From NCBI GenBank assembly GCA_947474365.1, contig CANJIU010000009.1:64457-128456 (forward strand): a stretch of 64,000 bases of DNA, given 5' to 3'. The stretch's first letter is position 1; every line of letters begins with the position of its first letter. This stretch comes from Opitutia bacterium. Its GTDB lineage: Bacteria; Verrucomicrobiota; Verrucomicrobiia; Opitutales; Opitutaceae. Positions 6,404 to 35,010 of this stretch are shown piece by piece. The notes under the pieces were generated by a model. It saw only the letters and a program-made list of their open reading frames with translations, did not search any database and was not told where the DNA came from. The translations under genes were made by a program, and so were the position numbers.

Positions 6404-6500
6404 GAACGGAACAGGAGCATCGCGGGACGTTAAAACCGATTTATCCGAGGTCAAGGGAGGCCCCCTGCTGTCGTCTTTCTCCCTAATCCGTAGAAATTCA

Positions 6501-6640
6501 GTCGAGAGCGGAGAGCCGGGAGCTGAGAGCAAAACCAAACGGTGAACTTCGGTTTCGGGTCGGGCGGCGCGCGTGTCTGGTCTCGAGATTGGGCTCTCAG
6601 CTCTTCGCTCCGAGCTCTCGACTGCATGGTCGCGGCTAAT
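6501..6640. repeat. R1 copy 1 plus an imperfect inverted-repeat partner (gtcgagagc..agctgagagc / gctctcagct..gctctcgac), forming a long hairpin between the SGNH hydrolase stop and the Ig-like protein start
   Basis: Read directly from the sequence. Arms at 6501-6530 and 6593-6622. Confidence 0.65.
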
Positions 6641-14403: not shown

Positions 14404-16788
14404 ATGCCCACGACCCTCCCCCACCCGACCGCAACGATCCTCCCACTCGACTCCACCTCCGATGCCGCCGTGTGCGGCCAAAAGGCAGCTACCCTCGCCC
14501 GGCTCAAAACCGCCGGCTTTCACATCCCGGACGGCTTTGTGATTCCCGTCGGCGCTGAACCTGACCTCGAACACCTGCGCACCGCGCTCAATCAGATCGG
14601 TGCGGCCGCCTGGGCCGTGCGCTCTTCGGGCGTCGCGGAGGATCTCGAGGGCGCTTCATTCGCCGGACAATACGAGAGCGTGCTCGGCGTGAAGACCGTC
14701 GAAGAAGTCGCAGCGGCCATCGCTCGCGTGCGGACGTCCGGCAAGGCCGCGCATGTCGCCTCCTACCGTGGCACGCGCGATGACAACGGCCCGGGCGGCG
14801 TGGCCGTATTGGTCCAACGCCTCGCGAATGCTCGCGTGGCGGGGATCGCGTTTTCCGCCAACCCGGTGACCGGCGACGACGAAGTCGTGATCGAAGCCGT
14901 GCGCGGACTCGGCGATCGTCTGGCGTCGGGCGAACGCGACGCCGATCGCTGGATCGACGGCAAGACGGTGCGGGCTGTCGCCGACACCGGCGTGCTCGAT
15001 ACGCTGACGGCACGGAAAATCGCCGATCTTGCCCGCAACGTGGCGGCCAAGCGCGGCGGTCCGCAGGACATCGAATGGGCGATCGAGGGCGACAAGCTCG
15101 TGCTGTTGCAGGCGCGACCGATCACCGGGCTGCCGCAGGCCCCGAAGATCGAAATTCCGCCGGGTCGCTGGATGAAGGACACCACGCACTGGTCGGCGCC
15201 AATGACCCCGGCGGGAGCGTCGATTCTGCTGCCCGCGATTGAGGCTGGCTTGGCGGAAGTGCTGCCCGAGTTTGGCTTCCCGCTCGAGCGGCTCGCGCTC
15301 CGAACGTTCGGCCATGAAGTCTACACGCAGGAGATCGAGGTCGGCGGAAAACACAACCCCGGCTCTCCCCCTCCATGGTGGGCGGGCGCAATTGCGTTTC
15401 GCCTCGTGCCGCCGCTGCGCCGGCTGGTCCAGAACGCCGCGAGCGCCCGGCAAAAATTTGAGAGCTACCCCCGGGCGTGGAGGGAATCCCGGCGAAACGA
15501 GTGGGACCAGAAGATTGTTGCTGAGAGCAAGGTCGTCCTCACCACGATGAACGATGACCAGGTGTTGGATCACCTGCGCCACCTCATCGACGACGTCGTG
15601 GTCGCCGGAGTATTGGTTCACTTCAAACTGATGGTGCCGGACATGGTCGCGGTGCACGAACTCGCCGAGTTCTGCGAACAAAAGCTCGGCTGGAAAACGG
15701 CGCAAACCCTTGAGTTGCTCGCCGGACTTTCGACAACCGTCACTCAGCCCGCCAACGAGCTGGCCGAAATCGCCGAGCGGGCGGGCGCACCGGCGGTCGC
15801 CCACGGACTGGACGCGATTCGCAAGACCAAGGCCGGTCCGCAACTCGACGCCTGGCTCGCCCGCTGGGGCCTCCGCGTGATCGATTGCGATCCGGGTTCA
15901 CCAACGATCGCGGAATTTCCGGCGCTGGTGCTCGGCCTGCTTCGTCAGCCGCGAATGTCGTCGGCCGCACAAGAAAAAACGCGCCAGGCGACCGTGGCCC
16001 GCGCCCGGGCTGGACTCGATGAAAGCAGTCGCGCGCAATTCGACACCGTGCTGCGTGTGGCCGAGCTCGTCCATCCCACGCGCGAGGAAAACGTCCTCTA
16101 CACGCAGAGCCTGCCGCTCGGGTTGGTGCGCCGCGTCTTGCTGGAAATCGGACGCCGGCTCGCCGCCACTGGACAGCTCCGCGCCGCGGAGGACGTGGTG
16201 TTTCTCGAAGTTTCCGAAATTCGCGACGCCATGAAACGAAAGCTCGCCGGCGAAACTGCCGCCGCGCGGGTGAGTCGTCGTCGCGCCGAGCGCGCCTGGG
16301 CGCGCGCCCATCCGGGTCCCGCCTACCACGGACCGGCTCCCGTCGCACCACCGTCCGCGCGCGGCCTGCCGGCTCCTCTCCAAAGAGTCATCAAGGCGTT
16401 TCTTTGGGACATGCGGCATGAGGAGACGGTGGCGCAGCCTCCAGAAGCGGACGGCACGCTGCTCGGTGTCGGCGCCTCACCCGGTCGCGTCACCGGACGC
16501 GTGCGGGTCATTCGTTATGAGTCGGAACTCGTCGATTTCCAGCGCGGCGAAATTCTGGTGTGCCCGAGCACGCATTCGAGTTGGTCGGTCGTCTTCGCGC
16601 AGGCGGCCGCCCTCGTGACGGATCACGGCGGCGCACTCTCCCACCCCTCGATCGTCGCGCGCGAATACGGCATTCCCGCCGTCGTCGGCTCCGGATGCGC
16701 CACGGCGAAACTGGTGACCGGCCAAACGATCACCGTCGACGGCACGACTGGCCGCGTGGAGCCAGGCCCACGGGGGTCACATCGTTAG
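14404..16788 (+). CDS. PEP-utilizing enzyme family protein (PPDK_N ATP-grasp plus C-terminal mobile His domain), with rifampin-phosphotransferase / PEP-synthase-like architecture
   Basis: 794 aa. N-terminal ATP-binding region. C-terminal phospho-histidine swivel domain (DHGGALSHPSIVAREYGIPAVVG). Lies immediately downstream of the TetR gene. Confidence 0.8.
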   Translation: MPTTLPHPTATILPLDSTSDAAVCGQKAATLARLKTAGFHIPDGFVIPVGAEPDLEHLRTALNQIGAAAWAVRSSGVAEDLEGASFAGQYESVLGVKTVEEVAAAIARVRTSGKAAHVASYRGTRDDNGPGGVAVLVQRLANARVAGIAFSANPVTGDDEVVIEAVRGLGDRLASGERDADRWIDGKTVRAVADTGVLDTLTARKIADLARNVAAKRGGPQDIEWAIEGDKLVLLQARPITGLPQAPKIEIPPGRWMKDTTHWSAPMTPAGASILLPAIEAGLAEVLPEFGFPLERLALRTFGHEVYTQEIEVGGKHNPGSPPPWWAGAIAFRLVPPLRRLVQNAASARQKFESYPRAWRESRRNEWDQKIVAESKVVLTTMNDDQVLDHLRHLIDDVVVAGVLVHFKLMVPDMVAVHELAEFCEQKLGWKTAQTLELLAGLSTTVTQPANELAEIAERAGAPAVAHGLDAIRKTKAGPQLDAWLARWGLRVIDCDPGSPTIAEFPALVLGLLRQPRMSSAAQEKTRQATVARARAGLDESSRAQFDTVLRVAELVHPTREENVLYTQSLPLGLVRRVLLEIGRRLAATGQLRAAEDVVFLEVSEIRDAMKRKLAGETAAARVSRRRAERAWARAHPGPAYHGPAPVAPPSARGLPAPLQRVIKAFLWDMRHEETVAQPPEADGTLLGVGASPGRVTGRVRVIRYESELVDFQRGEILVCPSTHSSWSVVFAQAAALVTDHGGALSHPSIVAREYGIPAVVGSGCATAKLVTGQTITVDGTTGRVEPGPRGSHR

Positions 16789-17149
16789 CTGCTAGTTTGC
16801 AACAAATAGACGCGGAACGTCCGCAAGCGGATGAGGCATGCCGATTGGAATATCGGGAAGCGGGTCCGCGGACGCCGGGAGCCGGAGTCTTGGATCCCGG
16901 CGAACATCAATCGGCATGACCGGTCCGCTGCCCCGCGCCTGGTTTCGACGACGTGGGCGTCGCCGCTCCAGCAGGGCGCAGCAGAAATAGGGAGTAAGTC
17001 CGAGAGGGACGCCGACGCTGCCGATGTCACTCACGAGGTCGCCCCCCTCACCCCATGAGGTTCAAGAAGTCGCCCGGGATGAAAATGAAGGACCGCTTTG
17101 GCGTAAACGAGGGCACCCCTTCTTACGACCGCAGACCGACCGAAATCGG

Positions 17150-17235
17150 ACGGGCGAGACCGCCCTGCCGGCTCCATGCTATGTCTATGCTATGTCCATG
17201 CTGCGTCCCTTTATGGCGATTTCCGGCGACCAGCC
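17150..17235. repeat. R2 copy 1, in the 890-bp non-coding region upstream of glnD
   Basis: See 27050-27135. Confidence 0.75.
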
Positions 17236-17680
17236 CGGCGATCCCGGAGCCGTTGCCGAGACCAGATGCCGTAAAACACTCCATGGGCATGGCTTAGGTC
17301 GCCGGCGGCGCCGCGAGGGCCCACCTGTGCTCCCCTATTTTTCTGACTGAAAGCAGGTTAGCGGGCGGCATCCGTTCCTCCAAAGGAAGCGATTCCAAGT
17401 GCCGCCAACGGCGAGCGGGCAACGCGATCACCCCGTGGGAGTCGAAAAGGTAAGGGACGACTCGCTCTTTGAGCGGTCCGGGCTGCTTGTCGTGCGGACG
17501 GACGATTTCGGACGCCCCGGAGGTGCGTCCCTACCATCCAGAACTCGTTTTCGATGCATTAAGAGGGGCGCCACGCCCCCGTTTGCCGGCGACCTACCGC
17601 CCCGCGGTTGCGGGATTCCCAACTTGGGCGTTGAATGTTCGACGTCCGCCGTTCGAAGTTGCACGTTCGTCGTCCCACCC

Positions 17681-20488
17681 ATGCCCGCCCACATCGCACA
17701 ACGCGCCAACGAACTCCTCAGGTTCACCGGAGACGTGCCCATCCCGGCCCGGCTGGCGGCGTGCAAGGAATTCCTCAAGGTGGAGATGGCCGGGCTGCAG
17801 CAGCGCCACCGGGCGGGCGCGTCCGGGCTGAAGATTTGCCAGGAACGGTCGCAAATCATCGATGCCCTGCTCACGAATCTCTTCGACTACGCGCTGACGA
17901 CCTACGCCCAGACGCGCGGCATCCAGCCCGCTCCGGTGGCGTTGGTCGCGTTGGGCGGATACGGCCGGCGAGAGCTCTCGCCCTGGAGCGACGTCGACGT
18001 GATGTTCCTTTTCCCCACCAAGACCAAGCCGGCGGAGGCGAAACCGCTCCAGGAGCACCTCACGAACGAGATCCTCTATCTCCTGTGGGACTGCGGTCTC
18101 AAGGTCGGCCACTCGACCCGCACGATCGATGATACCTTCACCGAGGCCCGAAAGGAAATCCTCTCCAAGACCGCGCTCCTAGAGGCCCGCCGCATCTCCG
18201 GATCGGAGAAACTCTACGGCACGTTTTCGCAGGCCTACCGGAGCTACTACGCGAGCGAAAATCCGAAGGACTACATCGCAGCGCGGCTCGACGACCAGGC
18301 CAACCGCCGCGGGAAGTACGGCAACACGGTCTTCAACCAGGAGCCCGACATCAAGAACGGCGTCGGCGGGCTCCGCGACTACCAGAACGCGGTCTGGATG
18401 GCGCGCGTCAAACTCGACATCACCACCATCGACGAGCTCGCCACCCAGAGTTATCTGCGGGCGGACGACCTCGCGGCGTTTCAGCGCTCCTACGATTTCC
18501 TGCTGCGGGTGCGCAATGAGCTGCATTTCATGAGCGCCCGGGCGACAGACGTCATGAGCCTCGATCTGCAACCGCGGATTGCCGAGAACCTGGGCTACAC
18601 GGAAAAGGAGATGCTCCCCCGCGTGGAGCATTTCATGCAGGACTACTACCGGTCGGCGCAGACCATTTTCCGCGTCTCGAAACTGGTGGAGGAGCGGCTG
18701 GCTCTGAGCATCGGCCGCAACGGCAACGGCGACAAGCGCCCGTTTCGCGAGAGCCTGCTGGCAGCCCGTTTCCAGCGCGCGAAGCGCATCGACGGCTTCG
18801 TCCTGCGCGGTCGCGAGCTGGCGGCGGAGACGCCCACGGTGTTTCGCGACGACCCGGTGCGCATAATCCGTGTCTTCCGGCATCTGCAAACGCTGGAGGC
18901 AACGCTCGACTTCCACCTGGCGGATCTCGTCCGCACCTCGCTCCCGTTGCTCACACCGGCGGTGGCCGACTCCGCCGATGCGAGCGTGAGTTTTCGTTCG
19001 ATTCTCTCCGAGGCCGGCGCGGTGCATCCCATTCTCGCCAAGATGCACGAACTGGGTGTGCTCGGCCGGTTCATCCCGGAGTTCGACGCGCTCACCTGCC
19101 TGGTCCAGCATGAGTACTATCACCGGTACACGGCGGACGTGCATACGCTGAACGCCATCCGCGAGCTCGACCGGATTTACACCGAGGCGGAGCCCATCAC
19201 GTTGAAGTACCGGGCGGCGCTCCACGAGACCACCGACACCTCCCTGCTCTACCTGACGCTGCTCCTGCACGACATCGGGAAGGCCGAGGGGATCCGGGGC
19301 CATGCCGAGAGCGGCGTGCGGCTGGCGGAGCCCCTGCTCACGCGCTTCGGCGTGTCACCGGTGGATCGGGACCTGGTGATCTTCGTCATTAAAAATCATT
19401 TGGCGATGGCACGATTCTGGCAGAAGCGCGACGTCGATGATCCCAACACCGCCACTGCATTTGCCGAGCTGGTGGGAGACGCCGAGCGCCTCCGCTACCT
19501 TTACGTCCACACCTTTTGCGACGCCCGCGGCACCGCCGCCGATCTTTGGAACAGCTACAAGGACACGTTGCATACCACGCTTTTCCGCTCCACATTCGAG
19601 CGGCTGAAACATGGCGCCGAAGTCGACGCCGGTCTCCAGCAAAAGAAAAAAATGACCCAACAGGAGCTTATCGCCAAGACCATCCCCGGAATCAGTGCCG
19701 ACGAAATCAACGCGCACTTCGGCCTGCTGCCGGACCGCTATTTCATCCACACCGACGCCGATGAGATTGCCCTGCACATCCAGATGGTGAACCGGCTGCT
19801 CCGGTCGATTACGACGGCGGATTCGGTGGGGTCCCTCCGGCCTGTCATCGAGTGGAAGGATGACCTCAACCGTTCCCTCACGGTGGTGAACGTCGTGACG
19901 TGGGACCGCGCCGGCCTCTTCTACAAGCTCGCCGGCGCCTTCAGCGTGGCGGGCCTCAGCATCCTTGGCTCGAAGGTCATCTCGCGGACCGACCACATCG
20001 CCATCGACACGTTCTATGTCGTGGAACCCGGCCGCGGCCCCGTGCAAAGTGCCAGCGCCCAGGAGAAGTTCGCCAAGACGATTGAGGAGGCGCTCATCGC
20101 CAACCGCGATCTCCTGCCCGACATCATGGCCCAGGCCAAGAAGATCGCCGCGACCCGGTACCTTTCGACGTCGACCGGCGAGACGCTGCACAGCTCCTTT
20201 CCTCCGACGGTTGACGTTTATCACGAGCTCTCGATGGAGCGGACGATCGTGGAGGTGCAGGCTCGGGACCAAATCGGCCTGCTCTATCGTCTGGCCAAGA
20301 CCATGAGCGACCACAGCTTTGACATCACGTTTGCGCGCATCGGGACCGAGCGCGGCGTGGCGATCGACACCTTTTACATCGAAGGCGCGAATCACGAGCC
20401 GGTCGAGACGCCCGAGCGGCTGCATGCCTTGCGCGACGCACTGAACGAGGTCATCGCACCGGCGCCAGCGCCAGTCGCGGCCAAATAG
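17681..20488 (+). CDS. glnD: [Protein-PII] uridylyltransferase/uridylyl-removing enzyme GlnD
   Basis: Nucleotidyltransferase motif GGYGRRELSPWSDVDVMFLF. HD domain (LLHDIGKAEG). Two C-terminal ACT domains. Start moved to MPAHIAQRANELL (ATG 17681) because the upstream ORF extension is low-complexity. Confidence 0.85.
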   Translation: MPAHIAQRANELLRFTGDVPIPARLAACKEFLKVEMAGLQQRHRAGASGLKICQERSQIIDALLTNLFDYALTTYAQTRGIQPAPVALVALGGYGRRELSPWSDVDVMFLFPTKTKPAEAKPLQEHLTNEILYLLWDCGLKVGHSTRTIDDTFTEARKEILSKTALLEARRISGSEKLYGTFSQAYRSYYASENPKDYIAARLDDQANRRGKYGNTVFNQEPDIKNGVGGLRDYQNAVWMARVKLDITTIDELATQSYLRADDLAAFQRSYDFLLRVRNELHFMSARATDVMSLDLQPRIAENLGYTEKEMLPRVEHFMQDYYRSAQTIFRVSKLVEERLALSIGRNGNGDKRPFRESLLAARFQRAKRIDGFVLRGRELAAETPTVFRDDPVRIIRVFRHLQTLEATLDFHLADLVRTSLPLLTPAVADSADASVSFRSILSEAGAVHPILAKMHELGVLGRFIPEFDALTCLVQHEYYHRYTADVHTLNAIRELDRIYTEAEPITLKYRAALHETTDTSLLYLTLLLHDIGKAEGIRGHAESGVRLAEPLLTRFGVSPVDRDLVIFVIKNHLAMARFWQKRDVDDPNTATAFAELVGDAERLRYLYVHTFCDARGTAADLWNSYKDTLHTTLFRSTFERLKHGAEVDAGLQQKKKMTQQELIAKTIPGISADEINAHFGLLPDRYFIHTDADEIALHIQMVNRLLRSITTADSVGSLRPVIEWKDDLNRSLTVVNVVTWDRAGLFYKLAGAFSVAGLSILGSKVISRTDHIAIDTFYVVEPGRGPVQSASAQEKFAKTIEEALIANRDLLPDIMAQAKKIAATRYLSTSTGETLHSSFPPTVDVYHELSMERTIVEVQARDQIGLLYRLAKTMSDHSFDITFARIGTERGVAIDTFYIEGANHEPVETPERLHALRDALNEVIAPAPAPVAAK

Positions 20489-23878: not shown

Positions 23879-24298
23879 CATACTGGGACACGCCAATAAC
23901 GGGGCGCCCGACGGACTGTCAAGGATGCGGGCAATCCTTCGCGCGCGGCGGGTGCATTTCAATTCCTGGACACTGGGAGTCACGGCTCCAGCAGTTGCAC
24001 GGGATCGGACCGACGGCGTCAGACTGCCCCGTTTAACAGGCTCCCTCCCATCCTTGCGCCGGCGCAAATGACGCGAGCATCGGCGTGGGCAATGGCATCA
24101 GCGCCTTTTGGGCAGGTCGCACTCAAGGGCGACAAGCCGGGCACAGTGGTAGAATGCGTCAATCTGGGGCGGCGGCATTCCAGGGGACGAGCAGGCACGG
24201 TAACGTCCGTGATCCCTTCGTCCGCCCCATTTCGCATGAATGAACGACGATTCATCTCATCTCCGTCCCGACGCAAACCCGGTTAACCTTTTCACCGA

Positions 24299-24712
24299 AT
24301 GAAAACGACCTGCCTGCTCGCGCTCTTCGCCCTCGTCACCTTCTGCGGCGGATGTGCCACCGTCAGCCCGAGGGTGACCAGTGGAATTCGGATCAACCCG
24401 GAAGCCGTAAGCGACATTCTACCCGGGGTGACAACCCGCGCGGAGCTCATCCGTCAATTCCGCCAATGCTTTTTGGGGACACCGCAGTGGACATGGGATG
24501 CCGAGCGAGCGATTGCCTATACGTGGACCACGAGCAACGGGGCGACAGCGCGGTGGTATGGCAAAATCTTGTCGGTGCAGCAAACAGACTGGGCCCTGGG
24601 GATCGTCTTTGATTCATCGGACCGGGTGGTTCGCTACGATTTCTTCAAATCGTCGTCGTCGCCGGAGAAAACCCGCGAGGCCGTGGAGGCATGGATTCAC
24701 GCCAAGTCGTAG
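24299..24712 (+). CDS. Hypothetical lipoprotein
   Basis: MKTTCLLALFALVTFCGGCA lipobox-like signal. 137 aa. Codon usage is less GC-biased than the neighbours. Confidence 0.55.
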   Translation: MKTTCLLALFALVTFCGGCATVSPRVTSGIRINPEAVSDILPGVTTRAELIRQFRQCFLGTPQWTWDAERAIAYTWTTSNGATARWYGKILSVQQTDWALGIVFDSSDRVVRYDFFKSSSSPEKTREAVEAWIHAKS

Positions 24713-24805
24713 CAGGGGTGCGGCTGAGCTGATACCGCCCGAGACTCCGTCACCTCACGCGATCCGTTACCCTTGAAATCCGCGCATAAGGAAGTCGATC
24801 CCTCG

Positions 24806-25294
24806 ATGAACTCACTCCCTCGCTGCCCCCACGTCCGCACCGTTCTCACCGTAGTCGTCGCGCTCCTGTCCCTGGCTGCCAGTCGAGTTACCGCCGTCGC
24901 ACAGACCTTGCCCCCGGGGGCTTCGCTCCAGCCCTTTGCCTTCGCTTCTGCCCGAGCGGCCCTCCCCTCCTTTGCCACAAACAAAGAGCGCCATTTCGAC
25001 TCCGATGTTTTTCTGACCAGTAAGGGGAAAGTCGCACTCGTGATGCCCTGGGCTTTTAATGGATCGAATGCGTGGGTGCTTGGGTTGGTGGGAATTGAAG
25101 CCGCCCTCGTTCTGCACCAAGAAAATGTTCAAAAGCGCGAAGTCGCACGAATCGACGAACAGATTGGGATGGTTGCCCTCACCGACCCGACCCGGGCGAA
25201 AGTTTATCGAACCGAGATGGAACGCGCCATGGCTGGTCGATCAACCAACGTCATGCCAATGCGTGAAAGCTTTCGAGGCACCGTTAGACGATAG
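24806..25294 (+). CDS. Hypothetical secreted protein
   Basis: MNSLPRCPHVRTVLTVVVALLSLAASRVTAVAQ signal-like N-terminus. No recognisable domain. Confidence 0.45.
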   Translation: MNSLPRCPHVRTVLTVVVALLSLAASRVTAVAQTLPPGASLQPFAFASARAALPSFATNKERHFDSDVFLTSKGKVALVMPWAFNGSNAWVLGLVGIEAALVLHQENVQKREVARIDEQIGMVALTDPTRAKVYRTEMERAMAGRSTNVMPMRESFRGTVRR

Positions 25295-25425
25295 CGCGGT
25301 GGCGGTCGCTCGGCTGCGCGTATCTGACCCATGAGCCTGATGTTTGATGGGCCCCATGACCCGCATGGACATTCTCAGTCTTGCCAAGGGCGATGACACC
25401 ATCGCGCCTTGTTCCCAAACCAAGG

Positions 25426-25463
25426 TCGCGGGAGAATGGCAGGCAAAACATTCTCCCGCGACC
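25426..25463. other. Perfect 14-bp stem hairpin (gtcgcgggagaatg / cattctcccgcgac, 10-nt loop) in an unassigned lower-GC stretch
   Basis: Read directly from the sequence. No flanking U-run on either strand, so it is not a canonical intrinsic terminator. Confidence 0.5.
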
Positions 25464-25968
25464 CTCTGCTGTTCACCGATGGGTACGCGTCTCGTCGTGG
25501 TAGTTTATCCGAAAGGTGGGTTGAACCCGGTGCCCGTAGGTCGAGCGTGCTGTGGCAACGAGCGGTCCTGATGCACGGCGGATCGCAGCCTCTGACCGGC
25601 AACTCGAAACGTTTCGCGTCCCTCAGCCCGGGACCTTCAATCCACTCGACTTTGATCTACGCCAAACCTGGGTTGTCGTTAACCGAAATCCTGACACGCG
25701 CGTTTGACCGCCTCATGGATTGCACGAAAAAATCGCACCCCAAAACCTGCAATGCCATGTCTACGTTTTTTGGGGTATGTAGTCTGTAACACGCGGCGAG
25801 TTCCTGAGCTCCCGGAGGTGCAACGTATCCGACCAGCCAGTAGCGGAAGGGCTTGGTGATCGGTTTCGTTGCCGGAGTGGCGGATATATGAAGGGCTTCG
25901 GTGCCGAAGTCGATCATCTGGACCGGCACTTGTCTGAACTTGAAGTCTACGCCTGCAATGGTTGCCGG

Positions 25969-26841
25969 CTAGAGTTTGCTGACCACCGGGGAGACGGGCA
26001 GCGCGAGGTGCAGGCCGGAAATCCGGTTCAGGTCGATGCTGACTTCGCGCGCTTCATTCTCGGCGCGACCGTTGAGTGTCAACCGGAGCGGCGCCGGCGT
26101 GATGCGGAAAAAGAGGCTGCCCGTGACGGTCTGACCGGGCGCGAGCGAAAGCGGCAGGACCAGTCGGCGACGGGTGAATTCCTCCTCGATGCGGTGCTTG
26201 CTTCGGATGTTCATCGCCACGCTCCCGACGGCCACCACCGGCAGGGCAACCACAGCCGCGGTCCCGACGCCGACGGCTGCGGCCCCCGCAGTGGTCATCC
26301 CGCTGAAGAATCCGCCGCTCAACGCCCCCGCGACGGCGACTCCCGCGCCCGCGACCGTGCCCGTTCCCAGCAGCAGCATCGTCTTGGTCTGGTCGGCCGC
26401 GTTGCTCTGCCACCAGGTTTTGCCGGCGCGATCGAGCTTCCAGGGATCTTCACCGGGAGTCACAGGCTCGCTGTGGGCGCTCGCCAACGTGGCGGTCGAG
26501 ATGACGAGCGGTGCTTCGCCGCGATTCGTCAGCGAGACAATATATTCGTCCCAATAGGCCTCGCGCTTCCAGGAGCCGGGGCCTTGGTAAATAATCACGG
26601 TGTGCAAAGTGGCCGCGGCCAATGGCGGCGCCGTGGGAGCTGTCTCGGCGCTGGTAGATGGACCTGGATTGGCCGAAACGATCGGTGCGCTGGAAAGTTC
26701 CAGCGGCACGACAGCGGGCGTGGATTTGTCCGCGAGTTTGTAGCCCCGGGTGACACAGCCAGTGAGCGTGAGGAGGACAGTCGCGGCGCCGATAAAACCC
26801 AGGCAACTGTAAATGAAGGAAGACGCACGGCATGTTTTCAT
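25969..26841 (-). CDS. Hypothetical lipoprotein with Gly/Ala-rich TM-like segment
   Basis: MKTCRASSFIYSCLGFIGAATVLLTLTGC signal/lipobox. Pro/Ala-rich linker. Gly/Ala-rich hydrophobic stretch (GTGTVAGAGVAVAGALSGG...). 290 aa. Confidence 0.55.
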   Translation of the reverse strand: MKTCRASSFIYSCLGFIGAATVLLTLTGCVTRGYKLADKSTPAVVPLELSSAPIVSANPGPSTSAETAPTAPPLAAATLHTVIIYQGPGSWKREAYWDEYIVSLTNRGEAPLVISTATLASAHSEPVTPGEDPWKLDRAGKTWWQSNAADQTKTMLLLGTGTVAGAGVAVAGALSGGFFSGMTTAGAAAVGVGTAAVVALPVVAVGSVAMNIRSKHRIEEEFTRRRLVLPLSLAPGQTVTGSLFFRITPAPLRLTLNGRAENEAREVSIDLNRISGLHLALPVSPVVSKL

Positions 26842-26907
26842 GAAGGGAGCTTAGATGGGGTTGCCCTTCATGCGGGATACTGGGTCGAACCGGATCAGAT
26901 AGACGGG

Positions 26908-27015
26908 CCGGCCACGACCGGGACAGCCCGTGAATTGCTGCCCGCTGCAGCCGCGATCGGGACTATTTGTGAGCCGAGACTAACAATTCACGAAATAACC
27001 CGTTTGGCAGGCATC
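26908..27015. repeat. ~100-bp repeat unit A, with internal inverted repeat ccgtgaattg...caattcacg. Copy 1 of 2.
   Basis: Shares about 80% identity with 27690-27815: ..cccgtgaattgctgcccgctgc..ctaacaattcacgaaataacccgtttggcaggc vs ..tccgtgaattgctagcccgctgc..ctaacaattcacggatagacccttttggcaggc. Confidence 0.7.
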
Positions 27016-27049
27016 CTTTTGCCCCCGGAACGGCCGGAATCGAACGGAC

Positions 27050-27135
27050 GCGACCGCCCTGCCGGCTCCTTGCCGTGTCCATGCCGTGTCCTTGCCGTGT
27101 CCCTTCTGGGCGTTTTCCGGCTGCCGGTCCGGTTT
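27050..27135. repeat. ~90-bp dispersed intergenic repeat (family R2), copy 2. Contains three 10-bp tandem units (cWtgcYRtgtc).
   Basis: cgaccgccctgccggctccttgccgtgtccatgccgtgtccttgccgtgtcccttctgggcg matches 17150-17235 (gagaccgccctgccggctccatgctatgtctatgctatgtccatgctgcgtcccttt) at about 80%. Confidence 0.75.
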
Positions 27136-27212
27136 CCGGCGCCCCCGTTCTGGCCGAACCGCCACACGGCGAGTGCCGCCAGCCGGGCGACCGAGAGCCG
27201 CGGGGCTATGAT

Positions 27213-27268
27213 GATTGGGCTCTCAGCTCTTCGCTCTGAGCTATCGTCTGGCATCGTTCCGGCTCAGG
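27213..27268. repeat. ~50-bp dispersed intergenic repeat (family R1), copy 2
   Basis: gattgggctctcagctcttcgctctgagctatcgtctggcatcg matches 6586-6640 (gattgggctctcagctcttcgctccgagctctcgactgcatgg). Confidence 0.75.
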
Positions 27269-27391
27269 CAACGACCTGCAATCAGCGGATTGGCCTCGTT
27301 GGGCCGGCCGTGAAATCCGGGGTCGGGCGTCCTCTGGCGCCCTTTCGGACCTCCTCTCGTCCTTCACTACCGGTATACTGCCGGGATACTC

Positions 27392-27435
27392 ATCACCCAC
27401 AGATTACCCACACATCACCCGCACATCACCCACAG
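27392..27435. repeat. Tandem array of 4 x 11 bp (atcacccacag attacccacac atcacccgcac atcacccacag)
   Basis: Read directly from the sequence. Confidence 0.8.
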
Positions 27436-27689
27436 CGGTCGTTTCCCGCCGGGTGGAGCCGCCTCGCGCCCAACCGGGCCGCGCAGCACTGCTTCCCCCC
27501 GCATCCGGCAACCGCTCCGCGGCGGCAGCGCCGACGCCGTGACGCCATGTCGCTTTAACCTACCCACCACTATAACCTGCCTCGCCGCGCCGAGGAAGGG
27601 AAAGTTCGGCCCGAGCGTGCAAGTCGTTGCCGCGATCGAACCGTAGTACTTTTTTTGCCCCGCGCTCCAAACACGAAGCACGGGGCTGG

Positions 27690-27815
27690 CGACCGGCCCG
27701 ACCGGCGACCGGCCCGACCGGGTCAGTCCGTGAATTGCTAGCCCGCTGCCGCGACCGGAGCTCTTTGTGGCCATGGACTAACAATTCACGGATAGACCCT
27801 TTTGGCAGGCCGCAT
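27690..27815. repeat. Repeat unit A copy 2 of 2. Preceded by a tandem duplication of cgaccggcccgaccgg.
   Basis: See 26908-27015. Confidence 0.7.
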
Positions 27816-27905
27816 GGATGGCAGGCCGGGTTGCCGCAACGTCACGACTCCGTCGAGCGCATCCCGCCACGGGTTGCGCGCTGGAACGTTTCTAAAAGTC
27901 GCCGC

Positions 27906-27980
27906 AAACCCACGCGACGGGGCGTCTCGTACCCAGGGAATCGGATTCCGAACGGATCGAACTGGAGCGGCGACGCGCCC
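27906..27980. repeat. ~75-bp direct repeat (family R5), copy 1
   Basis: aaacccacgcgacggggcgtctcgtacccagggaatcggattccgaacggatcgaactggagcggcgacgcgcccg vs 28015-28092. Blocks aaacccacgcgac, ccggattccgaaYggatc and actggMgcggcga are conserved. Confidence 0.65.
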
Positions 27981-28014
27981 GATGACGCCCCAGCAAGTTG
28001 CGCAATAGCATAAC

Positions 28015-28092
28015 AAACCCACGCGACAGTGACGTTGCGTCCCCAGAAACCGGATTCCGAATGGATCAGACTGGCGCGGCGATGTCCGCCCG
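28015..28092. repeat. ~75-bp direct repeat (family R5), copy 2. Contains a perfect 9-bp stem hairpin ctggcgcgg/ccgcgccag.
   Basis: aaacccacgcgacagtgacgttgcgtccccagaaaccggattccgaatggatcagactggcgcggcgatgtccgcccgcgccag. Ends 20 bp before the helicase stop codon. Confidence 0.65.
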
Positions 28093-28111
28093 CGCCAGCC
28101 TCGAAAAGCAC

Positions 28112-29941
28112 CTACTCCGTCTTCGTCTCGTCGCCCGCGAGCGCGGGCTCAAGCGCGATGCCCTTGAGTTTGATTCCGGCGAGTTTCTTCACGATGAACT
28201 CCGCCTCAGGCTTGGCCACATCGGCCAGCGTGTGCCGCTGGTGAATGTCGATCGCCCCGACCACGGTGGCCGGAAGGCGGGTCACTCCCGCGATCTTCCC
28301 CACAATGTCCGCCGGCGTGACGAGTTGCTTGCGGCCAACATTGAGAAAGATCGTCGCCATCTCGGGGTCCCGTCCGGTTCGCGCTGGGCGTTCATACTTT
28401 GGCTTCCGGGACGACCCGGCTTCAAGGTCGTCCTCGGATGGCGTGGTCGTCTCGGACGGGAGTTCGGCAGCGGCGGCGCCGTGTGTACGCGCGACATCGG
28501 CCACCACCTCCTTGGGCGACGTGACGGCCTTGGCCCAGGCGGGCGCGGGCTTGGCGGAACGCGGCGCGGCCGGTACCGACGTCGGCGTCGCGGCGAACGG
28601 CGTGGCCGGGACGGGTGCACCCGGTTTCTTCCCGGTCGCCGAGGCGGCAGCCTGGCTACCCTGCAGGAGATGGATCAATGCCGAACAGATGTCCGTGCTG
28701 GCGTACCCCTGGTCGAGCAACCGATCGATCAGCTGGTCGTGGGGCTTGAACTCCTTCGCATCGAGCGTCGCGCGGATTTTTTCCACGAAGACGTTGGACC
28801 GGGCCGCGTCGACCTCGTCGAGCGATGGAATCTTTCCGCGCCGGATGTCGAGGCGAGCCCAGCGCACCATGCTCTGCAGTTTGTAGATCTCCTGGCCCGA
28901 CACGAAGGTGAAGGCCTGGCCCTTCCGACCGGCGCGTCCGGTGCGCCCGATGCGATGGGTGTAGTCCTCTGCATCGTTTGGCAGGTCGAAATTGAACACC
29001 ACCTCGAGGTCGTCGACGTCGAGCCCGCGGGCGGCAACATCGGTCGCAACAAGGAACTCGAATTTCCGCTCACGGAACTTCTGCATCACGCGGTCACGCT
29101 GCGCCTGGGAAATGTCACCATGCAGACGGTCGGTCAGATAGCCGCGCGAGTGCAGGTGCTCGTCGAGGTCGTCGACCATGATCTTCGTGCTGCAGAAAAT
29201 GATGCCATAGCGAAAGTCGTTCACGTCGATGAGCCGGGTGAGCGCCTCAATTTTCGACCGCCGGTCCACCTCAAAGTACGTCTGCTCCACCTGCGGGGCG
29301 TTTTGCGCGACGGACTCGATTTTGATCCAGGCCGGATCCTTCGAGTAGCGGGAAATCAGGTCCTGAATCGCCCGCGGGATGGTGGCCGAGAAAAACAGCA
29401 GCTGCCGCGTGGGCGGCACGGATTTCAGGATGTGCTCGATGTCATCGCGAAACCCCATGTCGAGCATGCGGTCGGTCTCGTCGAGGATCGCGAGCTTGAG
29501 CTGGTCGAGTTTCAGCGTGCCGCGCTCCATGTGGTCCATCACGCGTCCCGGAGTGCCGATGACGATCTGCACTCCGGCCGCCAGGGCGCGGAACTGCCGC
29601 TCGTAGCTCTGCCCACCGTAAATCGGCACGCCCGAGACGCCGCGCTTGAAGAGCGCGAGTTTGCCGAACTCCTCCGCCACCTGTACCGCCAACTCACGCG
29701 TCGGACAAAGGATCAGCACCTGCACGGCCCGAATCTTCGGGTCGACCTTCTCGATCGCCGGAATGGCAAAGGCCGCGGTCTTTCCCGACCCGGTTGACGA
29801 CTGTCCGACGACGTCGCGGCCGGTCAAGATCGTGGGGATGACGGCCGTTTGAATGGGAGAAGCCTCCTCAAATCCCATCTTCGCGACGGCTTTCAGGAGG
29901 TCCGGCGAGAGGCCGAGTTGATCGAACGGGCGTTTTTCCAT
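28112..29941 (-). CDS. DEAD-box ATP-dependent RNA helicase (DeaD/CsdA-like) with ~170-aa low-complexity C-terminal extension
   Basis: Start at MEKRPFDQLGLSPDLLKAVAKMGFEEASPIQ (Q-motif), ATG 29941. Walker A GQSSTGSGKT. DEAD box. SAT and HRIGRTGRAG motifs. Ala/Pro-rich tail and a C-terminal RNA-binding-like domain. The six-frame ORF extension to 30643 is rejected. Confidence 0.9.
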   Translation of the reverse strand: MEKRPFDQLGLSPDLLKAVAKMGFEEASPIQTAVIPTILTGRDVVGQSSTGSGKTAAFAIPAIEKVDPKIRAVQVLILCPTRELAVQVAEEFGKLALFKRGVSGVPIYGGQSYERQFRALAAGVQIVIGTPGRVMDHMERGTLKLDQLKLAILDETDRMLDMGFRDDIEHILKSVPPTRQLLFFSATIPRAIQDLISRYSKDPAWIKIESVAQNAPQVEQTYFEVDRRSKIEALTRLIDVNDFRYGIIFCSTKIMVDDLDEHLHSRGYLTDRLHGDISQAQRDRVMQKFRERKFEFLVATDVAARGLDVDDLEVVFNFDLPNDAEDYTHRIGRTGRAGRKGQAFTFVSGQEIYKLQSMVRWARLDIRRGKIPSLDEVDAARSNVFVEKIRATLDAKEFKPHDQLIDRLLDQGYASTDICSALIHLLQGSQAAASATGKKPGAPVPATPFAATPTSVPAAPRSAKPAPAWAKAVTSPKEVVADVARTHGAAAAELPSETTTPSEDDLEAGSSRKPKYERPARTGRDPEMATIFLNVGRKQLVTPADIVGKIAGVTRLPATVVGAIDIHQRHTLADVAKPEAEFIVKKLAGIKLKGIALEPALAGDETKTE

Positions 29942-30061: not shown

Positions 30062-30601
30062 ATGCCTGCCATCTGCAAATGCGGACAGGAAATCAACCTC
30101 GTCGCGTCGCTCGATGCCCTTTCGAGCCAGGTGATGGGGAGTTCGGGGATGTTCGTTGACACCTGCCGCGGTTGCGGGGAAACGACCGAAATCCGCCTGC
30201 GCAACGGCGGCTTTGAAACGGGATACTCGTATTTCGGCGGCAGCATGCATTTTGAAGCGATGCAGCGCGTGGGGGTGGCGGGCCTGAAGATCCGTGCGTT
30301 TGACCCCGATGACCTGGAAGTGACTCTCGGGGACCGGCGCTGGCTCTTCGGAATCCGGCACATCTCCCATCATCGTTTCGTCGTGTTTCCGCAGGCGTTT
30401 GTCGCCGGGAAGCAACTCGGAACGTTGAACTTCAAACAATGGGACGTCTCCGTCGCGCGCGTCGAACGGGGCGCCGAACGACTCGATCCCACCTCGGAGC
30501 TGGTCGTCACCGCGGGCGATTTCCTCGTTTTGTCCGGTCCGGCGCCGGCCTTGAACCGCGCCTGGAACTACATGAATGACGGGGACGCGATACCTCGTTA
30601 G
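30062..30601 (+). CDS. Hypothetical protein with N-terminal CxC...CxxC zinc-ribbon-like motif
   Basis: MPAICKCGQEINLVASLDALSSQVMGSSGMFVDTCRGCGETTEI.... 179 aa. Divergent from the helicase. No recognisable family. Confidence 0.45.
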   Translation: MPAICKCGQEINLVASLDALSSQVMGSSGMFVDTCRGCGETTEIRLRNGGFETGYSYFGGSMHFEAMQRVGVAGLKIRAFDPDDLEVTLGDRRWLFGIRHISHHRFVVFPQAFVAGKQLGTLNFKQWDVSVARVERGAERLDPTSELVVTAGDFLVLSGPAPALNRAWNYMNDGDAIPR

Positions 30602-31031
30602 CTCGCAGCCCGGGACATTCGGCGCGCTCGGGGACGAAATCATCCATCAAACCGCCCCGCCAACGGCACTTACGCGACCTACGTAACAGCGATGCTTGTA
30701 CGCGGTGCCGCGACACGCATTCTCCGACGCGTTCTTAGGATTTACACGCCTAAGCTGCCGCCGCTTCCTCGGCGACCAGCACGGGGGACCCAATTTTCCG
30801 TCGCCAGCACGAGCAATCGCGCAGGCGGCGGGCGGGGCGAACGGACGCGGGCAACCGCGGCCAAGGTGACTTCCTAGCACCGAGCCCGTCAGCTAACCTC
30901 GTCGGCAATGGGAAGGGTGATCCACTAGAGCGCCGCATTTGCGGATGTCTCCAAGGTCGCTCCAACGCAACCGCACCGTCGTGCACGTCGGGGAACACCT
31001 GTCGTGCGGGCGGCGCTTTCCAGACATCGCC

Positions 31032-32969
31032 ATGACCTCAGTCGTTCTCTCCCCGTCCGGTGCCGCGGCCCTGTTCGCGCACCTGTTCATCGTCGCCGTT
31101 TCCCTCTGTGCTCTGGGCCTCGCGCTTCGTCAGCAAGCGCAACCTTGGCGACTCGCGCTGGGTCTAGCGGCCGCCGCGCTCTGGCTCACGCCGCTGATTC
31201 TCGCCTCCGGCTGGGCCGAGCGAGGCCTGCTGCTGCTCGCGAGCCTGCTTCTGGCGCCCGGCCTCGTGGGCCTGGTCGTCATTCGCGAAAATCAGGTCGG
31301 CATCGTGATCAAGAAGTTCGCGTCGCGCTCACTGCCAGCCGGACAGCTGATCGCACTCGACGGCGAGGCCGGCTATCAGTCCGACACGTTGCCGCCCGGG
31401 CTCCATGCCGGGTACGTGTTCTGGCAGTTTCGCATCGTCAAGACGCCCATGGTCGAGGTTGCGCCGGGACAGATCGCGCTCGTCGTCGCCGCCGCCGGCG
31501 CGCCGATTCCTCCCGGACGCATCCTCGGTCGCGTCGTCGACTGTAACAACTTCCAGGATGCGCGCCGATTCCTGCTCGGCGACGGCGAAAAGGGCCGCCA
31601 GCTCGGGCTCCTGACCGCCGGCACGTATCGGATCAATCGCGCCCTGTTCGAGGTCATCACGGCCGACAACGCCCACGAACACAACATCCCGCCCAGCTAC
31701 CTCGAGCTCACGCACATCGAGCCTGACATGGTCGGGATCGTCACCACCCTCGATGGCCTGCCGATCGAAGGCGGCGAAATCGCGGGCGCGACCATCCCGG
31801 GGCATGACAACTTCCAGAACGCCCAGTCGTTTCTCGATCACGGCGGCCGGCGCGGACTGCAGGAGCAGGTGCTCCTTTCCGGCTCGTGGAACCTCAACCC
31901 GTGGTTTGCCGAGGTGGAACAGGTGCCGATGCTCAGCATCCCAATCGGCTCGGTCGGTGTCGTGATTTCCTTCGTCGGGCTCGCGCACCTCGATGTGAGC
32001 GGCGCCGAGTTCAAGCACGGCGATCTCGTCAACGTCGGCCACAAAGGCGTGTGGGTGTCGCCGCTCTACCCTGGCAAGCACCCGGTCAACACCCGCGTGA
32101 TGCGCGTCGAGCTCGTCCCGACGACCAACATCGTGCTCAACTGGGCCAACCGCACCGAGGCTCACCACTTCGACGAAAAACTCTCGTCGATCACCGTGCG
32201 CTCCAAGGACGGCTTCGCGTTCAACCTCGACGTCGCCCAAATCATCCACGTCGGCGCCCTCGACGCCCCCAAGGTGATCTCGCGCATCGGCTCGATGCAG
32301 AACCTCGTCGACCACGCGTTGCAGCCGATTGTGGGAAATTATTTCCGCAACTCCGCCCAACACCACACCGTGCTGGACTTCCTCAACGCCCGCAGCGACC
32401 GACAGGCCGAGGCGTCGGGCCACATCCGTTCGGCGCTCGCCGCTTATGACGTCCAGGCCATCGACACGTTGATTGGCGACATCACGCCGCCCGCGGAGCT
32501 GATGAAAACCCAGACCGATCGCAAAATCGCCGAGGAGGAAAAGAAGACCTACGAAATCCAGGAAGCCGCGCAACGTCAGCGCCAGGAACTCGTGAAGGCC
32601 ACGGCGCTCGCGAACATCCAACAGCAGATGGTCGACGCCGATCAGGGCGTGCGCATTGCCGAACTCCATGCCCAGTCCGCGATCCGCTCGGCGAACGGCG
32701 AGGCCGAGTCGACGAAGCTCCGCGCCTTCGGTGAAGCCGACGCCATCCGCGCCACCGGCAACGCCAAGGCCGAGGCCTACCGCGCCGGTGTCGAATCGCT
32801 CGGCGGCGCCAACTACACCCTGATGCAGCTCACGCAAACCCTCGCCGACAAGGGCGTGCGCATCGTGCCCGATGTTTCGGTTACCGGAGCACAGGGCGGC
32901 AGCGGCCTGCTCGACTCCATGCTCGCGCTTCTTGCGCGGGAGAAGAACGAAGGCACGAAGTCGGCCTGA
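31032..32969 (+). CDS. SPFH/band-7 family protein (flotillin-like) with N-terminal TM helices and C-terminal coiled-coil
   Basis: Start MTSVVLSPSG. Multiple hydrophobic helices, then the SPFH core. C-terminal EA-rich coiled coil (AEAYRAGVESLGG). No NfeD-like partner gene is adjacent. Confidence 0.75.
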   Translation: MTSVVLSPSGAAALFAHLFIVAVSLCALGLALRQQAQPWRLALGLAAAALWLTPLILASGWAERGLLLLASLLLAPGLVGLVVIRENQVGIVIKKFASRSLPAGQLIALDGEAGYQSDTLPPGLHAGYVFWQFRIVKTPMVEVAPGQIALVVAAAGAPIPPGRILGRVVDCNNFQDARRFLLGDGEKGRQLGLLTAGTYRINRALFEVITADNAHEHNIPPSYLELTHIEPDMVGIVTTLDGLPIEGGEIAGATIPGHDNFQNAQSFLDHGGRRGLQEQVLLSGSWNLNPWFAEVEQVPMLSIPIGSVGVVISFVGLAHLDVSGAEFKHGDLVNVGHKGVWVSPLYPGKHPVNTRVMRVELVPTTNIVLNWANRTEAHHFDEKLSSITVRSKDGFAFNLDVAQIIHVGALDAPKVISRIGSMQNLVDHALQPIVGNYFRNSAQHHTVLDFLNARSDRQAEASGHIRSALAAYDVQAIDTLIGDITPPAELMKTQTDRKIAEEEKKTYEIQEAAQRQRQELVKATALANIQQQMVDADQGVRIAELHAQSAIRSANGEAESTKLRAFGEADAIRATGNAKAEAYRAGVESLGGANYTLMQLTQTLADKGVRIVPDVSVTGAQGGSGLLDSMLALLAREKNEGTKSA

Positions 32970-33018
32970 ACACCCACCACGAGGGGACGGCTTTCGTGCC
33001 GTCCCCGCATCTCCCTCG

Positions 33019-35010
33019 ATGACTTCCATCCGCCACCTCTTCTTCGGTCGCGCCCGTTCGCTCGCCGAGCCGAACCTCTTCCATCAGGTCTCCCTCATCG
33101 CGCTTTTTGCCTGGGTGGGACTCGGAGCCGACGGACTCTCTTCGTCGTGCTATGGACCCGAGGAGACGTTCCGGGCCCTCGGCGCCAACCCACACCTTGC
33201 GATCTTCGTGGCCCTCGCCTCGGTCGTCACGATCGGCGCGATTTGCGCGAGCTATTCGCAGATCATCGCCCTCTTCCCGACGGGCGGTGGCGGCTACCTC
33301 GTCGCGAGCAAACTCCTCTCGCCCACCGCCGGCGTGGTGTCCGGCAGTGCCCTGCTCATCGACTATGTTCTCACCATCACGATCTCGGTCGCCAGCGGCG
33401 CCGATGCGCTCTTCAGCCTGCTGCCGCCAACCGTGCTCGAGTGGAAATTGCCGTTCGCGTTTGCCAGCATCGCCGGACTGACCGCCATCAATCTCCGCGG
33501 CGTCCGTGAATCGGTGACGCTCTGGGTGCCAATCTTCTTCATCTTTGTCGGCACCCACGCGTTCGCGATTCTTTACGCGCTCGGCAGTCATTCCTCCGGG
33601 CTGCCGGCGCTCGCGACTGCGACCGTGGACGAGGTCCATACCGTGTCGTCGCAACTCGGTTGGTTCGGATTACTCGCAGTGTTGCTGAAAGCCTACAGCA
33701 TGGGCGCCGGCACCTACACCGGTATCGAAGCCGTGAGCAACGGCCTCCCGATTCTGCGCGAACCGCGCGTCCAAACCGGCCGCCGCACCATGGTTTACAT
33801 GGGAGTGTCGCTCGCCGTCACCGTTGCCGGACTGCTCCTCGCTTACCTGCTCTACCGCGTTGAGCCGGTGGACGGCAAAACGCTCAACGCCGTTCTCCTC
33901 GAGAAACTCACCGCGGCATGGTCCCCGCGGGTCGGCGCTTCCTTTGTCTGGGTCACCCTCGCGTCCGAGGCCGCCCTGCTCCTGATCGCGGCGCAGGCCG
34001 GGTTTCTCGACGGCCCGCGCGTCCTCGCCAACATGGCCCTCGACCGCTGGTTCCCGACGCGCTTCGCCAACCTCTCGGATCGCTTCGTCACCCAGAACGG
34101 CATCCTGCTCATGGGCGGCGCCGCGCTCACGATGCTCGTCGTCACGCGTGGCGCAGTTGCCGTGCTCGTCGTGCTCTATTCGATCAATGTCTTCATCACG
34201 TTCACGCTCTCCCAACTCGGCATGGTGAAACATTGGTGGCATGTCCGCAGCACCGAATCCACGTGGCGACGCAAACTTGCGATCAACGGCTTCGGCCTGG
34301 CACTGACGACGTTCATCCTGATTTCGCTCACCGTCGTCAAATTCCACGAGGGCGGCTGGGCCACGCTTCTCGTTACTGGTGTCCTTGTCGCCACCGCGTT
34401 CGCGGTCAAACGCCACTACCAAAACGTCGGCACCCAACTGCAGCGCCTCGATAACCTCCTTGCCGGAGTGTCGCATGACGACGGCCAAAGTGCGGCAGCT
34501 GCCAAACGTGCCGCACCCCAGGCTCCGGACCCGCAGCAGCGCACCGCGATCCTCTTGGTCAACGGCTACAACGGGCTCGGTCTCCACACCGCGCTCCACG
34601 TCCCGCGACTCTTCGGCGACACGTTCAAAAACTTCGTCTTCATTTCTGTCGGCACGGTCGACGCCGGCAATTTCAAGGGCGCCGACGAACTCGCCGCGCT
34701 CCGCGCCCACACCGCCGCGGAAGCCGAGCGCTACGCCGCCTGGGCCCGCGCGCACGGCTATGGCGCCGCGACGCTCACGACCATCGGTCACGACGTCACG
34801 GGCGAAATCATGGCGCTCGCCGCGTCCGCCCGCGATCGATTCCCCAACAGCGTCTTCTTCGCGGGACAACTTCAGTTCGTCCGCGAGACTCGCCTCACCC
34901 GACTCCTCCACAACCACACCGCCTCGGCGCTTCAATACCGCTTCTTCGCCGAGAACTTCCCGTTTGTCGTCCTGCCGATTCGCGTCGGCACGACTGGTTT
35001 TGCTCCGTAA
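33019..35010 (+). CDS. APC-superfamily amino acid permease fused to a C-terminal cytoplasmic alpha/beta domain (UspA-like)
   Basis: Start MTSIRHLFFG. About 12 TM segments, typical of APC transporters (GADGLSSSCYGPEE...). About 200-aa C-terminal soluble domain (AILLVNGYNGLGLHTALHVPRL...FVFISVGTVD). Confidence 0.75.
   Translation: MTSIRHLFFGRARSLAEPNLFHQVSLIALFAWVGLGADGLSSSCYGPEETFRALGANPHLAIFVALASVVTIGAICASYSQIIALFPTGGGGYLVASKLLSPTAGVVSGSALLIDYVLTITISVASGADALFSLLPPTVLEWKLPFAFASIAGLTAINLRGVRESVTLWVPIFFIFVGTHAFAILYALGSHSSGLPALATATVDEVHTVSSQLGWFGLLAVLLKAYSMGAGTYTGIEAVSNGLPILREPRVQTGRRTMVYMGVSLAVTVAGLLLAYLLYRVEPVDGKTLNAVLLEKLTAAWSPRVGASFVWVTLASEAALLLIAAQAGFLDGPRVLANMALDRWFPTRFANLSDRFVTQNGILLMGGAALTMLVVTRGAVAVLVVLYSINVFITFTLSQLGMVKHWWHVRSTESTWRRKLAINGFGLALTTFILISLTVVKFHEGGWATLLVTGVLVATAFAVKRHYQNVGTQLQRLDNLLAGVSHDDGQSAAAAKRAAPQAPDPQQRTAILLVNGYNGLGLHTALHVPRLFGDTFKNFVFISVGTVDAGNFKGADELAALRAHTAAEAERYAAWARAHGYGAATLTTIGHDVTGEIMALAASARDRFPNSVFFAGQLQFVRETRLTRLLHNHTASALQYRFFAENFPFVVLPIRVGTTGFAP

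Follow-up and report, generated by a model that had tools for sequence, protein, structure and literature searches.

Pneumococcal BOX elements are modular intergenic repeats in which boxA, a number of boxB units and boxC follow one another. Dispersed through the genome in roughly 100 or more copies, they are able to form stable hairpins, and their boxB unit is ~45 nt long. Lambda-type arm sites are laid out as tandem direct repeats of about 10-11 bp. Operators of Streptomyces PhoP are built from 11-nt direct repeat units (PMC2275107), and at two nitrogen-gene promoters, those of glnA and amtB, PhoP competes with GlnR (PMC3561978). Here, we describe R2, a repeat with a tandem 11-nt array between two arms, found in a 64,000-nt stretch of Opitutaceae DNA (the window) that is part of the 138-kb metagenome contig ERZ27277814:k141_2902848. 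Its placement in Opitutaceae (Verrucomicrobiota) follows from the names that GlnD homologues carry.

The longest direct repeat of the 64-kb window pairs 17112-17238 with 27006-27132, an ungapped alignment of 127 nt in which 95 positions (74.8%) are identical. When 127-nt segments of this sequence were paired at random (n = 200,000), identity was 27.0 ± 4.3% with a maximum of 46%, which places the identity of the two copies, referred to as A and B, ~11 standard deviations above random pairs. A local blastn search of the intergenic region of A against that of B returned E = 5.5e-23. A preliminary description of this DNA had reported an intergenic repeat common to the region upstream of glnD and a repeat-dense locus, and these values bear it out; the sequences it quoted, at 17150-17235 and 27050-27135, are both present there. 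The mismatches between A and B comprise 18 transitions and 14 transversions, and A or T is enriched in copy A at mismatched sites (16 versus 8). An 18-nt core, GACCGCCCTGCCGGCTCC, is identical in the two copies. A run of this length is within expectation for a 127-nt alignment at 75% identity (permutation P = 0.11, not significant) and so gives no evidence of a constrained core; accordingly, the 18-mer was rejected as a constrained functional core.

Each copy is organized around a tandem array. TRF assigned a period of 11 to both, with unit TCCATGCTATG (2.7 copies) in A and unit TCCTTGCCGTG (3.3 copies, 92% matches) in B, and what had been described as an internal triple 10-mer is thus an array of 11-nt units with the consensus TCCWTGCYRTG. 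From the TRF period and the table of units, the array of copy A (17162-17216, plus strand) reads GCCCTGCCGGC / TCCATGCTATG / TCTATGCTATG / TCCATGCTGCG / TCCCTTTATGG, with degenerate units on either side of three good ones, and that of copy B (27056-27110, plus strand) reads GCCCTGCCGGC / TCCTTGCCGTG / TCCATGCCGTG / TCCTTGCCGTG / TCCCTTCTGGG. The number of array units was identical in every copy and strain seen.

The full length of the element was defined after a third copy and a strain variant of A had been aligned with the window copies. The arm / tandem module / arm architecture is present in the resulting alignment of four sequences (A, the variant A′, B and C), and a full-length R2, with a left arm of ~50 nt, the 11-nt array and a right arm of ~90 nt, comes to ~195 nt rather than the ~90 bp first proposed. 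Copy B is full length (27006-27200, plus strand; nhmmer 178.6 bits, profile positions 2-194) and consists of a left arm at 27006-27055, the array at 27056-27110 and a right arm at 27111-27200. Copy A (17112-17262, plus strand; 138.7 bits, profile positions 1-151) has a left arm, the array and a truncated right arm. Relative to A′, it carries a 54-nt deletion after 17227. The 54 nt found in A′ but not in A, and the sequence next to them on the downstream side, can be aligned to the right arm of B, which sets the full length at ~195 nt and identifies the window copy A as a deletion derivative.

The third copy, R2C, lies ~300 nt upstream of A′ in a strain that is ~96% identical to the window and contributes the second member of the GlnD cluster. 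Two contigs from two samples (L048 and L049) start at the same base within the last unit of the R2C array, and positions 1-85 of L048 align with the right arm of R2B at 27096-27181. The right arm of R2C is ~87% identical to that of B over 86 nt, compared with ~72% over 92 nt for the right arm of A′. The window itself holds a weak remnant of R2C, comprising right arm and downstream spacer, at 16861-17003 (plus strand), recognized by local alignment with positions 23-161 of L048. R2 is therefore known from at least three loci, all in one orientation and all inside ~10.3 kb, with C and A ~300 nt apart upstream of glnD and B 10 kb downstream, a count that rests on ~80 kb of one contig plus strain variants. 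The word "dispersed" in the preliminary description does not suit this distribution, as the other ~70 kb of contig ERZ27277814:k141_2902848 contained no copy. That description had set its proposal against the case of only two copies and no conservation in related genomes. The copy number does exceed two, through R2C in a strain variant, whereas conservation extends only to strains of the same species.

Comparison among strains provided a view of how the copies vary. The third array unit of A′ has drifted to GCTATGCTACG, which begins with GC. By eye and without scoring, the left arms look mosaic: A′ shares TCCTTTTGCCCCC with B, while A shares CCG.AATCG.ACGG with B, a pattern that hints at exchange between copies. 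Strains in which R2B is identical differ by 1-4% elsewhere. No substitution separated the R2B sequences of the strains over 193 positions, and adjoining non-coding DNA differed by 0.7-1.8%; with ~2 substitutions expected, the difference is not significant. The arms of R2B carry two 1-nt indels between strains. Divergence between the window and L048 was 24% over 17226-17400 and then fell abruptly to 1.1% over 17401-17680, a step located ~280 nt upstream of glnD. This sharp change indicates that the A/C side was swapped by recombination with a more distant haplotype that also carries R2, the step in divergence being the edge of the exchanged tract. Four contig ends fall inside R2 arrays (L003 at 27078, L005 at 27068 and the starts of L048 and L049), and independent assemblies share other break points at 24370 (L004 and L005) and 16713 (L011 and L012). 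The ends within arrays could reflect heterogeneity of array length within the population, or further copies or unresolved repeats.

Both window copies are intergenic, as had been proposed. Copy A is situated in the 892 nt of non-coding DNA that separate a PPDK-like gene (14404-16788, plus strand, stop at 16788) from glnD (17681-20488, 935 aa as called in public assemblies), and occupies the interval 419-569 nt upstream of the glnD start codon at 17681. Copy B lies in 1270 nt of non-coding DNA between a lipoprotein-like gene (25969-26841, minus strand, start at 26841, 290 aa) and deaD (28112-29941, minus strand, stop at 28112). The array of A is ~465-519 nt from the glnD start and that of B ~215-269 nt from the start of the lipoprotein gene, with the array of B directed towards the 3′ end of the convergent deaD. 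Orientation relative to the flanking genes is thus inconsistent between the copies. The 290-aa lipoprotein-like protein showed no paralogy with a second 290-aa ORF in the window (51039-51911). Beyond deaD, a c-di-AMP riboswitch of the ydaO type (30737-30922, plus strand) scored 56 bits, the gathering score being 38. It immediately precedes genes for an SPFH/Band-7 protein (30939-32969) and a permease of the APC family (32872-35010), and a small gene encoding a TrkA_C domain (30062-30601) lies just upstream of the riboswitch. Such a context would fit regulation of potassium or osmolyte transport by c-di-AMP.

The 1.27-kb gap around copy B also holds two copies of a repeat that we call D2, a D7 tandem pair, a D8 repeat and two short arrays. 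The intact D2 copy (27709-27810, ~100 nt) can fold into a long, almost perfect hairpin whose stem, GTGAATTG...CAATTCAC, continues on either side (z = -5.0 and -6.8 for the plus and minus strands, respectively). D2 looks like a palindromic REP- or MITE-like element. Its decayed copy D2a (26908-27012, plus strand) has a degraded fold (z -0.8 and -1.6) and abuts the left end of R2B with a 7-nt overlap, and is separate from R2. D8 is a 38-nt repeat, 92% identical between 27213-27250 and 6587-6624, two intergenic sites 20 kb apart; at the 6.5-kb site it is part of an inverted pair with a partner near 6500-6537. It is another small repeat family of this genome. The D7 units, ~110 nt and ~80% identical, stand in tandem at 27881-27995 and 28014-28082, just downstream of the deaD stop codon. 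The short arrays, at 27391-27434 and 27688-27721, consist of four copies of CATCACCCACA and two copies of GGCGACCGGCCCGACC, respectively. A strain 96-97.5% identical to the window (L047/L048) has a single unit of the latter 16-nt array and lacks 51 nt (27813-27863); on the strength of these differences, the locus is structurally polymorphic within the species.

We next consider how far R2 extends beyond this cluster. A two-sequence profile recovered A and B alone in the window, another 16 kb of this contig yielded no match to it, a four-sequence profile found no copy at any other locus fetched, and ~100 kb of sequence from relatives contained no R2 copies. Exact scans for 18-20 nt that join the conserved core to the beginning of the first unit, an approach that may miss diverged relatives, gave 3 matches among 185,579 GTDB species genomes; JGI metagenomes gave 20 and IMG/VR gave 1. 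All are chance matches, without an array, and a tRNA found beside the Nonomuraea core matches was set aside as an unrelated chance neighbor. The source genome is evidently absent from the GTDB species, JGI and IMG/VR collections scanned. Against plasmids, blastn returned one 35-nt chance match, in a Streptomyces plasmid and outside the element core, and against phages it returned nothing. Searches with ORF translations were aimed at other R2 copies miscalled as genes, and the only homologues recovered came from the corresponding locus of another strain. With the 88-aa ORF over B, this locus in a strain 97.5% identical was the sole match, and the 108-aa ORF over A, run with HMMER against 1.84 billion representative proteins, gave one match without an aligned stretch and nothing meaningful.

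The regions around R2 are arranged differently in related genomes. In relatives with 87-90% GlnD identity, valS precedes glnD, except that one contig has an unrelated Peptidase_S24 gene instead, and the nucleotide homology of these relatives to the window starts only at 17621, 60 nt short of the glnD start codon. Two of these relatives (L015 and L016) have deaD directly after the HNH gene, and their homology is interrupted at 23933-28117, a 4.18-kb lineage-specific insert. The closest orthologues of the lipoprotein gene (81% protein and 84% DNA identity) have a different upstream neighbor, and their homology to the window ends at 26896, before D2a and R2B. These limits of homology indicate that both window copies lie in DNA found only in this species, at places where its gene order differs from that of relatives. 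The insert, which stands between the HNH endonuclease gene and deaD, has a lower G+C content of about 0.55-0.60 in its left half and contains three small genes without a Pfam match, among them the gene for the 290-aa lipoprotein-like protein, and the 1.27-kb repeat-dense non-coding stretch.

Mean identity between array units is 9.7/11 inside one copy but 8.0/11 across copies. TGCT is present in each of the three good units of A and TGCC in each of the three of B, and the units of the two copies differ at 2-3 of 11 positions (CTATG versus CCGTG). Greater likeness within than between copies indicates that the array probably undergoes concerted evolution by slippage or gene conversion inside each copy. 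A protein-coding sequence or pseudogene was rejected: the mismatches between A and B divide 11/10/11 by codon phase, and the ORFs overlapping A and B are in different frames. A TR/VR pair of a DGR was rejected as well: copy A has an adenine at only 14 of the 32 mismatched sites, substitutions of every type are present, and the ORFs scanned showed no reverse-transcriptase domain.

What might such an array do? The main rival to the reading that we favor below holds that it is a phased operator, in which three to five 11-bp direct repeats bind a winged-helix response regulator of the OmpR/PhoB type or a similar protein, the arms bring an associated promoter, and the copies are duplicated regulatory cassettes. 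We consider this unlikely. One copy does lie upstream of glnD, but its array is ~465-519 nt from the start codon, that of B points at the 3′ end of the convergent deaD, and relatives have no R2 upstream of either glnD or the lipoprotein gene. The units recur with a period of exactly 11, with at least two head-to-tail units (2.7-3.3 copies by TRF), and A and B have the same number of good units with no indel over 127 nt. TC..TGC...G is kept in nearly every good unit, the exception being the third unit of A′ with its drift to GCTATGCTACG, yet 2-3 of the 11 positions differ between copies. A scan with the sigma-70 consensus found no sigma-70-like promoter near R2 on either strand, and a candidate sigma-54 promoter at the left end (GGCA..TTGC), examined by eye, was rejected with its spacing off by 1-3 nt in both copies. 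Instances of the array motif elsewhere in the 64-kb window were not above chance, and the window ORFs scanned against Pfam (to about 51 kb) included no response-regulator gene. The absence of R2 at orthologous upstream regions, the inconsistent orientation, the lack of a promoter consensus and the failure of the motif to recur in 64 kb all speak against the regulatory element of the preliminary description. The protein-binding array that it offered as another option would be compatible with the 11-bp phasing. A different proposal makes R2 part of an unannotated small RNA or long UTR, such as a protein-sponge RNA offering A(A/U)GGA every 11 nt on the minus strand. The long non-coding surroundings (892 and 1270 nt) would accommodate such a transcript, and in B that strand has the motif once in every 11 nt (AAGGGAC..CAAGGAC..CAUGGAC..CAAGGAG). 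However, the middle unit of A has no GGA (AUAGACA), which also weakens a CsrA-type GGA sponge, no terminator or promoter was found bracketing either copy, and other species show no conservation. Rfam gave no R2 match at the gathering threshold or at E <= 5. Relative to dinucleotide shuffles, z was between -1.0 and +0.3 for 149-nt stretches taken from A and from B, each folded as plus and as minus strand, and -0.14 and -0.64 for full-length B and A′, on the plus strand only. The covariance analysis that had been proposed for the family was carried out with RNAalifold on three copies and yielded unfavorable covariation terms (+3.6 / +1.7) and many broken pairs on both strands. Since R2 folds no better than shuffles and lacks covariation, a structured RNA or hairpin element was rejected, and we regard the small-RNA proposal as very unlikely.

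Two further explanations would have R2 arrive from elsewhere. It might be a non-autonomous mobile element, or an orphan transposon or IS end, whose 11-nt repeats are transposase-binding sites and which inserted at the synteny breaks or helped to create them. Both window copies are in lineage-specific DNA at synteny breakpoints, other small repeats adjoin them, including the strong hairpin element, strain-level structural differences map to R2 copies, and contigs break within the arrays. Against this, the three known copies are clustered in a single orientation and no copies were found in the other genomes or metagenomes scanned. Terminal inverted repeats were not found in B, A′ or A, the inverted-repeat search giving short internal CCGG-rich matches only. 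Flanking direct repeats were absent at A, and no target-site duplication was convincing at B, where CCCGTT occurs on both sides but derives on the left from D2 homology and on the right lies within the A/B similarity (CCGTT). The scanned window ORFs and the gene calls of the flanking contig stretches included no transposase or integrase gene. An element with neither terminal inverted repeats nor target-site duplications nor a hairpin, and with no copies found in other species, fits poorly with the mobile element first suggested, and we hold this explanation to be improbable. Highly improbable, in our judgment, is the variant in which R2 represents attachment-site arm remnants of degraded integrative elements, with the units as integrase arm-type binding sites. 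The layout of the array may match that of lambda-type arm sites, and the copies are direct repeats in one orientation within inserted DNA, such as the 4.18-kb insert at 23933-28117. But attL and attR have only the core in common, not both arms; the copies stand away from insert boundaries, by ~920 nt for B and ~360 nt for A; a conserved syntenic block from glnD to HNH separates A from B; and no integrase gene or remnant was detected among the window ORFs scanned. ARAGORN found no tRNA, and a tRNA-derived att site was rejected on that ground.

We favor, with a probability of about one half, the reading that R2 is a species-restricted, low-copy, locally duplicated and decaying non-coding repeat, filler or selfish DNA at synteny junctions. 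The copies of R2 are similar, non-coding and modular in anatomy; they are clustered, absent from other species, represented in part by deletion derivatives, and uniform in their arrays within each copy. R2 looks like ordinary lineage-specific repeat DNA and gives no sign of a conserved function. It is most likely neutral or selfish and without a role for the neighboring genes, a lack of function that we infer from the sequences. Under this locally duplicated, decaying repeat, new copies would arise by local duplication or ectopic recombination and would then decay, as the 54-nt deletion in A and the reduction of C to a remnant in the window strain suggest, while replication slippage or gene conversion would keep the 11-nt array uniform in each copy.

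Two observations sit less comfortably with neutral drift. The alignment of A and B runs for 127 nt without an indel and each copy has exactly three good units, which is mildly unexpected for drifting DNA with a slippage-prone array. The 11-bp period, moreover, corresponds to one helical turn, the classic layout of phased binding sites. R2 could accordingly be a candidate operator of an uncharacterised Opitutaceae DNA-binding protein, or a slippage-prone contingency switch, of which B is maintained as the functional copy while A and C are decaying duplicates. We think this quite doubtful. An array whose length varies in the population, as in a contingency switch, would explain the four contigs that end in arrays. 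A binding site or phase-variable switch would be new for regulation in Verrucomicrobiota, where cis-elements are poorly known. A larger genome-wide R2 family, and hence mobility, is possible, given that the copies were counted in ~80 kb of one contig and its strain variants. As a decaying repeat of an uncultured Opitutaceae population, R2 has little significance beyond annotation; it marks strain-variable junctions around glnD, breaks short-read assemblies and is a possible strain marker.

Overall, we rate R2 as one more lineage-specific small intergenic repeat, outside Rfam families and distinct from MITEs, REPs, attC sites and DGR pairs. It has in common with MITEs and REPs that it is small, non-coding and intergenic and lies near variable regions and other small repeats, but it differs from them in its low copy number and in having no terminal inverted repeats, target-site duplication or palindromic hairpin. 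As in micro- and minisatellites, short units resemble others of their own array more than they resemble those of paralogous arrays, and neighboring arrays vary in unit number between strains (two units versus one for the 16-nt array at 27688-27721); the R2 array, by contrast, is constant in unit number and set within conserved arms. The array also resembles the PHO boxes of Streptomyces PhoP, which consist of at least two head-to-tail 11-nt units, one per helical turn, with a short core partly conserved in each unit (PMC2275107, PMC3561978). This likeness is one of geometry only. PHO boxes belong to the promoters of a defined regulon, and orthologous promoters retain them, whereas R2 arrays are hundreds of nucleotides from start codons, are absent from the orthologous regions of relatives and are embedded in ~195 nt of duplicated flanking sequence, and the unit TCCWTGCYRTG is unlike PHO-box units. 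In anatomy, R2 appears most to resemble BOX-type modular intergenic repeats. Its internal unit is 11 nt rather than ~45 nt, it is known from three clustered copies and it has no fold above background, yet like BOX elements it is non-coding and intergenic, is built as arm, tandem module and arm, has deleted derivatives and belongs to one lineage.
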